Counted from the stretch's first letter, positions 49,053-54,165 are shown. The stretch: 64,000 bases of DNA from Candidatus Nanoarchaeia archaeon (GCA_028279765.1 JANQND010000009.1:65198-129197), one strand, 5' to 3'. Numbers and translations are program-made. The notes: generated from the sequence alone by a model not told the origin.

Positions 49053-49143
49053 GCCCGAGTAGTATAATGGATAGAATACCTGGTTGCGGAATACTATTCA
49101 ATGCAAAATCCAGGAGATCGGAGTTCAATTCTTCGCTCGGGCA
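49053..49143 (+). tRNA. Intron-containing tRNA, anticodon tentatively GCG (Arg)
   Basis: 7-bp acceptor stem GCCCGAG/CTCGGGC, D arm GTAT-AATGGATAGA-ATAC, anticodon stem CCTGG/CCAGG enclosing a 26-nt loop (TTGCGG plus about 19-nt insertion at 37/38), T arm CGGAG-TTCAATT-CTTCG, discriminator A. No encoded CCA. Confidence 0.55.
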
Positions 49144-51093: not shown

Positions 51094-51273
51094 ATGAAAA
51101 TGTGCAATTGCAGGCAATGCAATAACGAGATAGCAGGGGATGGTAATACGACCATTGTCCTTTGTTCCTTTAAGCAGGGTCCGGTTCATTTGGGCTGTTG
51201 CCTAAATACATGCAGCTGGGATCAAAGACCCTGCGAGCATTCAAGGGGCATCTTCGAGAAGATCGGTGATTAA
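51094..51273 (+). CDS. Small Cys-rich ORF (59 aa, 8 Cys), possible Zn-binding protein preceding nrdD
   Basis: MKMCNCRQCNNEIAGDGNTTIVLCSFKQGPVHLGCCLNTCSWDQRPCEHSRGIFEKIGD. Stop TAA lies 3 nt before the nrdD ATG. Below the 60-aa cutoff of the ORF track. Confidence 0.3.
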   Translation: MKMCNCRQCNNEIAGDGNTTIVLCSFKQGPVHLGCCLNTCSWDQRPCEHSRGIFEKIGD

Positions 51274-51276
51274 GAG

Positions 51277-53280
51277 ATGGAATTGAAAAGAATACGAAAA
51301 CGTGACGCAAGAATAGTAGAGTTCGATCAACAAAAAATTACGAGCGCTATATTTAAGGCTGCAAAATCCGTTGGCGGAACAGATGAGAGTATAGCAAAAA
51401 CCCTCTCTGATAAAGTAGTTGCTGTACTCGAATACATGTACGGCGCAAAGGAAATCCCTACCGTTGAAGAAGTCCAGGATGTCGTGGAAAAAATTCTTAT
51501 CAAGTCAGGCCACGCAAGTACCGCAAAAGCATACATCCTCCATCGAAAGCAGCACGAAAAAATGCGCTCCATGAAAGGATCCTTTCTGGAAGTGCGCAAT
51601 GCTGTCGATGAATACCTTAAAAAAACAGACTGGCGTGTCTATGAGAACAGCAATGCAGATTACTCGTTTTCAGGCCTTATGTCACACACCGCAAGCAAAA
51701 TACTGGCAAACTACACGCTCACTGAAATCTATTCAGATGAGATCGCCCGCGCACACAAAAACGCGGACATCCATATCCATGATCTAGGATACGGAGTTAT
51801 TGGCTATTGTTCTGGTTGGTCACTAAAAAGTCTGCTTATGAGCGGATTTGGCGGGGTTTCCAAAAAAATCCGATCAAAACCACCTAAACACCTAGATGTT
51901 GCATGCGTTCAGATGGTAAATTTTCTCGGAACCATGCAGATGGAGCATGCAGGGGCCCAGGCGTTTTCCTCCATAGATACCCTGCTTGCTCCTTTTATTC
52001 GCATAGATAACCTCCCTTACGAACAGGTAAAACAATGCATGCAGATGCTTGTTTTCTCTTTGAATGTGCCAAGCAGATGGGGATGCCAGGCACCCTTTAC
52101 TAACTTCACTTTTGACTGGACAGTACCAAAAGATATGGAGAAAGAGCCAGCAATAATTGGTGGAGAACTCATGGATTTCACTTACGGAGACTGCCAAAAC
52201 GAAATGGACCTGATTAACCAGGCATTTATTGAAGTCATGCTTGAAGGAGATGCAGACGGCAGAACATTCTTCTATCCTATCCCTACCTATAATGTCACGA
52301 AAGACTTCAACTGGGATTCTTATAACGCGAAACTGCTTTTTGAAATGACCGCTAAGTACGGGACCCCTTATTTTCAGAACTTCATTAATAGCTCATTAAC
52401 TCCTTCAGATGTTCGCAGTATGTGTTGTAGATTACAGCTCGATCTCAAGCAACTAAGAAATAAGATGGGAGGATTATTCGGCGCCGGTGACCAAACCGGG
52501 AGTATTGGTGTAGTAACCATCAATCTTCCACGAATCGGATACCTTGCAAAAGATGAAAAGGAATTTTTCCAATATCTAGATCAAGTGATGGAAATAGCAA
52601 GAGATTCCTTGGAAACAAAGCGATCAATCATTGAAAAAAATCTCAAAGCAGGCTTAATGCCCTTCACCAGGAAATTTTTGGGTTCCTATCGCAATCATTT
52701 TTCAACTATCGGACTAAATGGAATGCATGAAGCGCTGCTCAACCTTATCGGTAAGGGAATAGAAACACAAGAGGGAAGAGAACTGGCAGTAAAGGCACTC
52801 CAATTCATGCGCGATAAGCTCACTGAGTATCAGGAAAGCACAGGCAACCTCTACAACCTTGAAGCAGTGCCTTGTGAGTCTGCAACATACCGATTCGCAA
52901 AGCAGGACAAAGAGAATTATCCTGATATTATCTCTGCAGGAACAAAGGAAAAACCCTACTACACGAACTCAACACACTTACCGGTAAACCACACCGACGA
53001 TGTCTTTGATGCCCTGGAACATCAGGATGAGTTACAGACACTCTATACCGGTGGCACAGTCCTGCATTGCTTTTTGGGAGAGAGGCTGGACAATTGGCGC
53101 AGTACGATGAAGCTAGTCAAAACTATTGCCAATAACTTCTCTCTCCCATATTTTACCCTGACACCCACTTTCAGTATTTGCCCCGAGCATGGATACATTA
53201 AAGGAGAACATTTCACTTGTCCCTGTCACATAGAAGAAGAAAAAGTACAAATAAAGGAGGTAGAAACATATGAAATGTGA
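51277..53280 (+). CDS. nrdD: Anaerobic ribonucleoside-triphosphate reductase, large polypeptide (ATP-cone, catalytic barrel, Zn site) without the glycyl-radical segment
   Basis: N-terminal ATP cone (RIRKRDARIVEFDQQKITSAIFKAA), class III RNR body, C-terminal CPEH...CPCH Zn motif. The ORF ends 13 codons before the position where the RxxGY motif would be expected. Confidence 0.8.
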   Translation: MELKRIRKRDARIVEFDQQKITSAIFKAAKSVGGTDESIAKTLSDKVVAVLEYMYGAKEIPTVEEVQDVVEKILIKSGHASTAKAYILHRKQHEKMRSMKGSFLEVRNAVDEYLKKTDWRVYENSNADYSFSGLMSHTASKILANYTLTEIYSDEIARAHKNADIHIHDLGYGVIGYCSGWSLKSLLMSGFGGVSKKIRSKPPKHLDVACVQMVNFLGTMQMEHAGAQAFSSIDTLLAPFIRIDNLPYEQVKQCMQMLVFSLNVPSRWGCQAPFTNFTFDWTVPKDMEKEPAIIGGELMDFTYGDCQNEMDLINQAFIEVMLEGDADGRTFFYPIPTYNVTKDFNWDSYNAKLLFEMTAKYGTPYFQNFINSSLTPSDVRSMCCRLQLDLKQLRNKMGGLFGAGDQTGSIGVVTINLPRIGYLAKDEKEFFQYLDQVMEIARDSLETKRSIIEKNLKAGLMPFTRKFLGSYRNHFSTIGLNGMHEALLNLIGKGIETQEGRELAVKALQFMRDKLTEYQESTGNLYNLEAVPCESATYRFAKQDKENYPDIISAGTKEKPYYTNSTHLPVNHTDDVFDALEHQDELQTLYTGGTVLHCFLGERLDNWRSTMKLVKTIANNFSLPYFTLTPTFSICPEHGYIKGEHFTCPCHIEEEKVQIKEVETYEM

Positions 53281-53434
53281 GAGAAAAACAGAAGTATATA
53301 GCCGAATCGTGGGTTATTTTCGACCCATACAAAATTGGAACATTGGAAAACAGCAGGAATTCAAAGATAGGCAGGAGTATTCTGGGAAAATGGAAGGCGC
53401 TATTACCGTGCCTTGCACACCAAAGCAAAAATGA
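53270..53434 (+). CDS. Separate 54-aa ORF encoding the NrdD glycyl-radical segment
   Basis: MKCERKTEVYSRIVGYFRPIQNWNIGKQQEFKDRQEY contains the class III RNR glycyl-radical motif (RIVGYFRP). AGGAGG lies at 53255-53260, 9 nt before the ATG. The ATG overlaps the nrdD stop (ATGAAATGTGA), and its own stop overlaps the nrdG ATG (ATGA). Confidence 0.5.
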   Translation: MKCERKTEVYSRIVGYFRPIQNWNIGKQQEFKDRQEYSGKMEGAITVPCTPKQK

Positions 53435-54165
53435 TTCCTATCCCTATTAAGGGACTGCAGAAAACAACACTTATCGACTACCCAGGCAAACTTGCCTGCA
53501 CAATTTTTATTGGAGGGTGCAACCTTCGATGCGGTTACTGCTACAACTCCTCTCTTGTCTTCAACAAAGGAGACACTATTCCTCTGCAGGATATCTTCGA
53601 CTTCTTGAGCAGCAGAAAAAAACACCTGGAAGGAGTCTGTATTACCGGAGGAGAGCCAACACTATACCCTCAGATAATCCATTTGTGCCAATTGATTAAA
53701 GAGATGGGATACCTTGTCAAGCTTGACACAAACGGAACTAATCCAGAATTACTTGAACAATTGCTTCAAAAGCAACTGATCGATTACTGCGCAATGGACG
53801 TCAAATGCCCCATAACAGACTACGATAAGGTTGTGCAGGTCTGGACAAATAAGAAAAGATTGAGAAAAAGCGTTCGCCTGCTCCTTAACTCAAGCATTGA
53901 ATACGAATTTCGAACCACTCTGCTTCCTGACATGAGCAGTGAAAAGGCAATCCTGCAAATAGCCCAGAGCATCAAAGGAGCAAAGCGCTATTACCTACAG
54001 CAGTTCAGGCCAACCTCAACTTGTATTGATGAAAAATACTGTTCTATAACTCCCCTTAGTGAAGAAAAAATACTGGAGCTCAAGCATCTCGTCGAGCCCT
54101 TTGTAGAGCATGTAGAAGTGAGGGGGCTGGACACTCTGGAAGTTGCTTCTTGGACTTCTATGTGA
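53431..54165 (+). CDS. nrdG: Anaerobic RNR activating enzyme (radical SAM)
   Basis: CNLRCGYCYN radical-SAM cluster motif. ATG start at 53431 preferred over the TTG at 53413. Confidence 0.8.
   Translation: MIPIPIKGLQKTTLIDYPGKLACTIFIGGCNLRCGYCYNSSLVFNKGDTIPLQDIFDFLSSRKKHLEGVCITGGEPTLYPQIIHLCQLIKEMGYLVKLDTNGTNPELLEQLLQKQLIDYCAMDVKCPITDYDKVVQVWTNKKRLRKSVRLLLNSSIEYEFRTTLLPDMSSEKAILQIAQSIKGAKRYYLQQFRPTSTCIDEKYCSITPLSEEKILELKHLVEPFVEHVEVRGLDTLEVASWTSM

Follow-up and report, generated by a model that had tools for sequence, protein, structure and literature searches.

Class III ribonucleotide reductase (RNR) is the archetype of glycyl-radical enzymes and a candidate ancestor of the ribonucleotide reductases. 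The NrdD proteins that have been characterized are all described as alpha2 homodimers in which the catalytic chain bears the glycine (PMC5704485), and in T. maritima NrdD zinc is bound via a CxxxHx6CxxC ribbon situated between the glycine loop and the final strand of the barrel (PMC4493059). The present study analyzes a class III RNR locus at positions 51,094 to 54,165 of the window, by which is meant the whole 64,000-nucleotide stretch of DNA from Candidatus Nanoarchaeia archaeon (GCA_028279765.1 JANQND010000009.1:65198-129197), where an nrdD gene, referred to here as the body, is followed by a small open reading frame (ORF) of 54 amino acids and by nrdG, the gene of the activase. Single-chain NrdD with its NrdG, as in T4, E. 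coli, T. maritima and P. copri, resembles the window's system in the barrel, the ATP-cone and the Cys-Cys finger loop, and likewise in the C-x2-H-x9-C-x2-C sequence pattern of the ribbon, the RxxGY motif and the adjacent NrdG2-type activase. In the window, however, the chain is interrupted in the last zinc knuckle, and the predicted fourth ligand and radical glycine lie on what appears to be a separately translated chain of 54 residues. The reading that we prefer, at a probability of roughly 0.85, is of a functional class III RNR that is naturally split into two chains and is encoded at the locus together with its activase.

Small stand-alone copies of the C-terminal radical loop of a glycyl-radical enzyme are otherwise represented by GrcA/YfiD and phage T4 Y06I, the "spare parts" of pyruvate formate-lyase (PFL), and the likeness may extend to function, in that the window's peptide would presumably be activated by the parent enzyme's activase and would work in complex with a loop-less body. 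According to a review of June 2026 no class of glycyl-radical enzyme other than the formate-lyases has small spare-part proteins (PMC13450708), and Andorfer et al. speculated that other spare-part proteins may exist (PMC8683613). The two cases differ in that GrcA serves as back-up to a full-length PFL that has a glycine of its own and whose C-terminus, once cleaved by oxygen, it replaces, whereas the window's NrdD body never carries one, and the peptide would therefore be obligatory. They differ as well in size and anchoring, the peptide having 54 residues and a proposed anchor in a shared zinc site against the 127 residues of GrcA, and in descent, as the peptide is unrelated to the PFL-type Gly_radical domain (PF01228) and a Pfam scan matched it to PF13597 only. 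A second glycyl motif was not seen in the few intact NrdD loci that were viewed in full, no systematic search having been made.

RNR catalytic subunits made from two adjacent genes whose products reassemble are also known. In the class II NrdJa+b of Pseudomonas aeruginosa the part on the separate gene is the C-terminal, Cys-rich zinc-finger domain (PMC5704485; PMC9669993), and the NrdA of phage Aeh1 was divided by the homing endonuclease MobE, its assembly being helped by extensions added at the C- and N-termini (cited in 10.1101/2022.08.31.505936). Both belong to another RNR class with other radical chemistry, their separated piece is without a radical-storing residue and no metal site is divided in them; in addition, the Aeh1 split is due to an inserted homing-endonuclease gene, and the window's locus has none. 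An earlier reading of this DNA made from the sequence alone (hereafter the sequence-only reading) knew of no class III RNR organized in this way, and full-text literature searches, with subscription-only papers and the unpublished knowledge of the RNRdb curators outside their scope, likewise turned up no account of a class III RNR that is split.

Position of the break in nrdD

The glycyl-radical motif RxxGY is not on the barrel polypeptide but in the 54-residue ORF, which is in the +1 frame (translation MKCERKTEVYSRIVGYFRPIQNWNIGKQQEFKDRQEYSGKMEGAITVPCTPKQK, opening MKCERKTEVYSRIVGYFRPIQNWNIGKQQEFKDRQEY), and because the body lacks RxxGY the system is to be regarded as a variant architecture and not as a canonical class III RNR member. 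The sequence-only reading had already described an nrdD frame that stops ahead of the motif, and the coordinates (Table 1) and the Pfam and NCBIfam models agree with it. On the Pfam NRDD model PF13597 (562 positions) the body aligned with positions 1-532 (E 1.3e-179) and the small ORF with 526-562 (E 5e-11), while on NCBIfam NF006126 (684 positions) the body matched 3-659 with 1047 bits (cut-off 548) and the peptide 646-682. Since these matches together span the whole model, the body and the 54-residue ORF jointly make up one complete NrdD. Residues M382, C383, C384, R385 and L386 were invariant in both alignments made (A1 and A2), and a thiyl-radical role for the finger-loop Cys is suggested by class III RNR structures (PMC9669993, PMC4493059). 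With body and peptide concatenated and modeled as a single chain, AlphaFold2 predicted a class III RNR fold (pLDDT 82.5, pTM 0.78) whose best fold matches were all class III RNR structures (8p2s, 4coj, 1h7b), and confidence was low only at about residues 650-669, which are the tail of the body and the start of the peptide.

The zinc-ribbon pattern of the window's subfamily is C-x2-H-x9-C-P-x-C. Of its elements C635, H638, C648 and P649 were invariant in 27 sequences, within a motif C-P-E-H-G-Y-x8-C-P that aligns with the zinc ribbon of T. maritima NrdD, and peptide Cys3 (column C670) was nearly invariant in an alignment that included intact homologues. Cys3 stands five residues ahead of EVYSR, which is the spacing of the fourth ligand in intact CPxC-xxxT-EVYSR, and the intact relatives read CPxC-xxxT-EVYSRIVGYFRP. 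By alignment, then, a predicted four-ligand ribbon would have its Cys-His-Cys set (C635, H638 and C648) on the body and its fourth Cys at residue 3 of the peptide, so that nrdD is cut inside what would be its last zinc knuckle. The sequence-only reading had asked whether the break falls in a surface linker between the zinc site and the glycine loop; the break is instead inside the ribbon, between the third and fourth predicted ligands. After the CP the body tails of relatives differ in length and in sequence, and some run out of frame across the peptide gene. A split intein was considered as well and rejected, because the 18-residue tail of the body and the 2-residue leader of the peptide before Cys3 leave no space for intein halves. 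As a separate observation, the split NrdD body of one other locus (L083, 2361-5450) contains an intein of about 330 residues placed exactly between the finger-loop cysteines (SM/C...THN/CRLRL, slashes marking its ends).

The split in related loci

An alternative explanation could be a frameshift pseudogene or an error of sequencing or assembly, in which case the small ORF would be a remnant and the anaerobic RNR would be broken. A single-base indel suffices for a +1 change in one genome and the window comes from a metagenome-type assembly, but this would not account for the Logan assembly of run SRR20820735, which was 100% identical over 8,004 nucleotides with genes called at 667, 54 and 244 amino acids; since that assembly is independent, the split is not an assembly artefact. 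Nor would a private lesion be common to a whole clade of about 60 closest relatives. In a homologue search that covered 5.8 billion proteins, all 53 of the closest NrdD homologues (65-77% identity) were without RxxGY and ended a few residues past ...CPEHGYIKGEHFxCP, several of them continuing in the wrong frame across the glycine motif, and intact relatives began only at about 65% identity and below. Named annotations among these 53 were Nanoarchaeia or DPANN archaea, Margulisbacteria and Termititenax. A neighbor-joining tree of 205 bodies placed the window within one all-split block of about 60 sequences, and split versions were also present in cultured isolates whose genomes are finished or in draft. 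Purifying selection acts on the small ORF and on nrdG, both of which are intact, with a pN of 0.08-0.15 over 37 codons of the small ORF while synonymous sites are saturated (about 0.8-1), the start codon and the Shine-Dalgarno (SD) site of the small ORF are conserved, and no accumulated stop codons were seen in body, peptide or nrdG. The sequence-only reading had kept decay or error as its alternative; with an identical second assembly, a clade-wide split and no accumulated stops, this is now scarcely credible.

Related-locus DNA was examined for six close relatives (L081, L082 and L085-L088) and for a more distant Margulisiibacteriota locus (L001), and in 7/7 of these there was a small ORF with an SD-like site upstream. 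The start of the small ORF was M-K/N-C-x3-T-E-V-Y-S-R in all six close relatives and MAKKEAVAC-GKA-TEVYSR in L001, where the position of the Cys relative to EVYSR is unchanged. The gene order of nrdD, peptide gene and nrdG was kept in relatives, including an adjacent nrdG in L085-L088, and a search with the 54-residue peptide returned 45 stand-alone proteins of 37-89 amino acids, all with PF13597. The distance from the stop of the body to the peptide ATG was, for the window and these relatives, -74, -74, -11 (the window), -4, +43, +43, +58 and +103 nucleotides, in frame +1 or +2, and in the wider set of split loci it ran from -74 to +167 nucleotides in frame 0, +1 or +2, reaching 1.4-2 kb on viral contigs. 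In nearly all 23 split loci the peptide ATG was preceded at 5-10 nucleotides by GGAGG, GAGGTGA or AAGGAG (AAGGAGG among the seven loci above), the motif being weak in L083, L050 and L017. Because frame and spacing vary in this manner, an indel, a programmed frameshift and decay can each be excluded as the origin of the pattern, and what the sequence-only reading had favored, a deliberate split over a random frameshift, is strengthened by this variation as it is by the conserved start codon and SD site and by purifying selection. The perfect AGGAGG that it had described ahead of the small ORF is present, and its further proposal of translational coupling at both junctions holds insofar as both overlaps exist in the window; the overlap type at both junctions, however, is peculiar to this genome, relatives having spacers.

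Alternatively, the two frames could be joined by recoding (programmed +1 frameshifting, bypass by the ribosome or splicing of the RNA) to yield a full-length NrdD. In prfB and dnaX frameshifting is stimulated by an SD-like element upstream of the site of the shift, and such an element is present upstream here. In addition the window's frames overlap by just 11 nucleotides, with the small-ORF ATG inside the final nrdD codons (ATGAAATGTGA), deletion of 49 nucleotides restores a perfect CP-K-C knuckle, and for the splicing form there are candidates in the archaeal bulge-helix-bulge intron or in a group I intron like that of T4 nrdD. The minimum free energy fold pairs ACAUUUCA (53208-15) with UGAAAUGU (53271-78), where a perfect inverted complementarity of 8 nucleotides exists between ACATTTCA (53208-53215, Glu-His-Phe codons) and TGAAATGT (53271-53278, the M-K-C start of the small ORF). 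This complementarity is probably a by-product of two conserved peptide motifs. Against recoding, the junction fold has a z of only -0.79 with 38 of 200 shuffles folding equally well, it is not bulge-helix-bulge shaped, and no comparable pairing was conserved in 12 relatives, with duplex energies within the range of shuffles; an Rfam scan of the junction matched no intron or other RNA family. The sole permissive shift zone, 53264-53277 (GAA ACA TAT GAA ATG), is without a slippery motif and the SD site is too distant for stimulation of the prfB type. A joined product is also at odds with the variable frame and distance of the peptide gene, and in 12/23 split loci there is a peptide-frame stop codon downstream of the body stop, so that no single frameshift fuses both ORFs. 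The conserved ATG two codons before the Cys, with its SD site 5-10 nucleotides upstream, would be needless for a fused product, and archaeal splicing in particular is countered by the identical split in bacteria, which have no archaeal splicing endonuclease. With no fixed frame or spacing and no slippery site, a programmed frameshift gene of the prfB/dnaX type was rejected, and recoding of any form appears very improbable.

The two-gene form is not limited to the window's clade. Among 80 GTDB species loci in the subfamily 64 were intact, 15 were confirmed as split and one (L041), which has a spirochaete-type body tail, showed no glycine motif inside the fetched locus; among 80 IMG/VR contigs there were four that were split. 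In two of the latter (L146 and L156) the genes for body and small subunit are 1.4-2 kb apart with unrelated small phage-like ORFs between them, which, judged by eye, include lysozyme-like and RuvC-like ones. The break also falls at different points. In Lentisphaeria (Victivallaceae) the body ends CPLE... and the small subunit reads MAKC... or MSKC...TEVYSRVCGYFRP; in Desulfuromonadales (Trichloromonas; L026, L052 and L062) the body is without CxxC and the small subunit has RVCGFFRP, in which Gly-Phe replaces the usual Gly-Tyr; and in Margulisiibacteriota the body is again without CxxC and the small subunit reads MAKKEAVACGKATEVYSR.... In the complete genome of Microbulbifer harenosus the body retains CPLC and the small subunit is METKTITLRDEERTPCEVWSRVMGYHRP, while in spirochaetes, among them the isolates Treponema sp. 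OMZ 840 and T. lecithinolyticum ATCC 700332, the body retains CPxC and has a helical tail, and the small subunit consists of a helical extension at the N-terminus, the glycine motif and a thioredoxin-like domain at the C-terminus, about 165-190 residues in all for complete ORFs. Upstream of the ribbon there is a third break point, noted in the small subunits P0151 and P0160 (84-89 amino acids), in which a complete CxxC...CxxC ribbon precedes the glycine motif on the peptide itself.

The spirochaete type was seen at L008, L012, L014, L015, L031, L051, L057 and L066. Its body tail is a charged helix of about 30 residues (e.g. KAEKEKELRLKLRNLEEERQ), its second chain opens with a similar helix (e.g. 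IAEIDADIAHIQKELAEV) and the thioredoxin-like domain after the glycine motif has CPNCPP; the new termini have the look of a heterodimeric coiled coil and recall the extensions of split Aeh1 NrdA. Many peptides end, past the glycine motif, in Cys pairs (CxxC, CC or CxC; P0123, P0127, P0129, P0131, P0136 and P0144, and loci L082, L085, L087 and L017) that resemble the redox-shuttle tails of class I and II RNRs, where the window's peptide has one Cys only (C49).

It is possible that the enzyme is functional and the split itself selectively neutral, a case of "genes in pieces" in which tight binding tolerates fission, perhaps seeded by mobile elements, and neither repair nor regulation gains from it. 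This is suggested by the precedents of Aeh1 NrdA (MobE) and class II NrdJa+b, by break points that are heterogeneous, coming before, inside or after the zinc ribbon, by the helical extensions on both new termini in spirochaetes and by the unrelated genes between the halves on viral contigs. A mobile-element origin is less in keeping with the absence of any homing endonuclease from the window and its close relatives, in which the halves overlap by 11 nucleotides (the window) or are separated by ORF-free spacers of 43-103 nucleotides. Some 16 independent transitions within one subfamily and long retention in a clade diverged to 65% identity would be unusual, though compatible, for a neutral change, and there is an obvious selective rationale in that oxygen cleaves the chain at the radical glycine (PMC8683613, PMC13450708). 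On balance we take a neutral origin as a serious contender at somewhat below even odds.

Other features of the locus

Coordinates of the features are collected in Table 1. For nrdG the mechanical ORF start would be an in-frame TTG at 53413, upstream of the ATG at 53431, and the latter is favored by the gene caller in the independent assembly and by the NrdG2 model. The protein scored 206.9 bits on TIGR02495 NrdG2 (cut-off 131) and also matched PF04055 and PF13353. In one relative (L086, 5142-6038) an extra radical-SAM gene of 298 amino acids is located between the small-subunit gene and nrdG. A scan for promoters and terminators found nothing inside the operon above the expectation from shuffles.

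Table 1. Coordinates of the class III RNR locus and its parts, in positions of the window
Feature	Positions	Strand	Details
8-Cys ORF	51094..51273	+	59 amino acids; stop 3 nucleotides ahead of nrdD ATG
nrdD body	51277..53280	+	667 amino acids; ends ...KEVETYEM, TGA at 53278-53280
Body domains			ATP-cone (residues 5-94) and class III RNR barrel; PF03477, PF13597
Cys383-Cys384 codons, finger loop SMCCRLQL	52423..52428	+	presumed thiyl-radical site
Predicted zinc ribbon, body half	53179..53220	+	Cys635 53179-81, His638 53188-90, Cys648 53218-20
Body C-terminal tail	53221..53277	+	Pro649, then 18 non-conserved residues (CHIEEEKVQIKEVETYEM)
Shine-Dalgarno-like AGGAGG	53255..53260	+	9 nucleotides (tagaaacat) ahead of small-ORF ATG at 53270
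Small glycyl-radical subunit gene	53270..53434	+	54 amino acids; frame +1 relative to nrdD; TGA 53432-53434
Small-ORF Cys3 codon	53276-78		predicted fourth zinc ligand
Small-ORF Gly15 codon	53312-14		in SRIVGYFRP; predicted radical site
nrdG, radical-SAM activase	53431..54165	+	244 amino acids; ATG shares ATGA with small-ORF stop

The sequence-only reading had also included in the split system the 8-Cys ORF that ends just before nrdD. The ORF is where it was described but this role was not sustained, as tblastn found it in none of about 90 related nrdD loci, the syntenic relative L087 has only a gap of 178 nucleotides at its position, and its homologues adjoin CorA or a transposase and not nrdD; absence from related loci and unrelated contexts of homologues together rule it out as an RNR component. 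Its family comprises small proteins of 51-110 amino acids (20 cluster representatives, E down to 4e-13) in which C6, C9, C24, H32, C35, C36, C40, S41 and C47 do not vary and H49 hardly does, and these residues would suffice as ligands for two zinc sites. The family is without a model in Pfam or NCBIfam, and the AlphaFold2 model (pLDDT 86) gave only non-significant PHD/RING-like matches in Foldseek. AGAGGG lies ahead of a pair of ATG codons, and the true start may be the second of them (51100).

Gene content elsewhere in the window is archaeal, with a family-B DNA polymerase, Hel308, an archaeal CCA-adding enzyme and a group-3b-type hydrogenase with HypA. A tRNA-Phe(GAA) at 49053-49143 (+) is 91 nucleotides in length, of which the Rfam model spans positions 1-71, and it probably has an intron, in keeping with an archaeal origin of the window.

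Proposed mechanism and meaning

From what is observed, namely the two-gene architecture and its conservation, the selection on the small ORF, its own signals for initiation and the place of the break with respect to the predicted zinc ligands, a mechanism may be proposed. The 54-residue peptide would be translated from its own SD site and ATG and would supply Cys3 and the Gly15 loop. It would dock by completing a Zn(Cys3His) ribbon, with the glycine loop inserting in the barrel, and docking of the two chains through such a zinc bridge is what the ligand positions lead us, with some reservation, to favor. NrdG, started at the stop codon of the peptide, would then use S-adenosylmethionine to abstract the C-alpha hydrogen of Gly15, and the glycyl radical would give rise to a thiyl radical on the finger-loop Cys and to reduction of nucleoside triphosphates as in single-chain NrdD. 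Activation of the peptide by NrdG and an active complex are, like the docking, what we infer.

Several points weigh against a split, functional enzyme or against parts of this mechanism. Synthesis of the peptide, its binding to the body, zinc coordination and the radical are all inferred from sequence, and the structure was modeled as a fused-chain monomer. Cys650 and His651, directly after Cys648-Pro649, could serve as alternative zinc ligands, although they are not conserved in relatives. In L085 a class I/II RNR also adjoins the locus, and the window's organism may therefore not depend on the split enzyme. For many relatives the class "split" was assigned from protein sequence alone, and the figure of about 16 split/intact changes (neighbor-joining/Fitch) is a rough count.

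A plausible benefit of the two-chain enzyme is that cleavage by oxygen would cost only a cheap, replaceable peptide of 6 kDa. More tentatively, the peptide could be a renewable, exchangeable radical cofactor that is activated by NrdG, docked through zinc and swapped after oxygen cleavage or loss of the radical, so that an enzyme of 76 kDa otherwise prone to suicide would be repairable, although we regard this as rather unlikely. Activation might in that case take place off the enzyme; activases accept short glycine peptides. If the peptide is such a cofactor, the many fissions of nrdD would reflect selection for repairability where transient oxygen is met. If true, the superfamily of glycyl-radical enzymes would have in this small protein its first obligate "radical subunit", and GrcA its first counterpart outside the formate-lyases.

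A widespread natural two-component form could address how the glycyl-radical domain exits the barrel to reach the activase, whether radical domains exchange between enzyme molecules and what role the zinc ribbon has, as well as whether oxygen damage to class III RNR is repairable, as GrcA does for pyruvate formate-lyase. The small ORFs, for which there is no model of their own in NCBIfam or Pfam, warrant a family model. NrdD genes that are truncated, as in DPANN archaea, Margulisbacteria, spirochaetes (oral Treponema among them), Desulfuromonadales and others, ought not to be counted as pseudogenes, and metabolic reconstructions that deduce a missing anaerobic synthesis of deoxynucleoside triphosphates from such "fragments" would be wrong.

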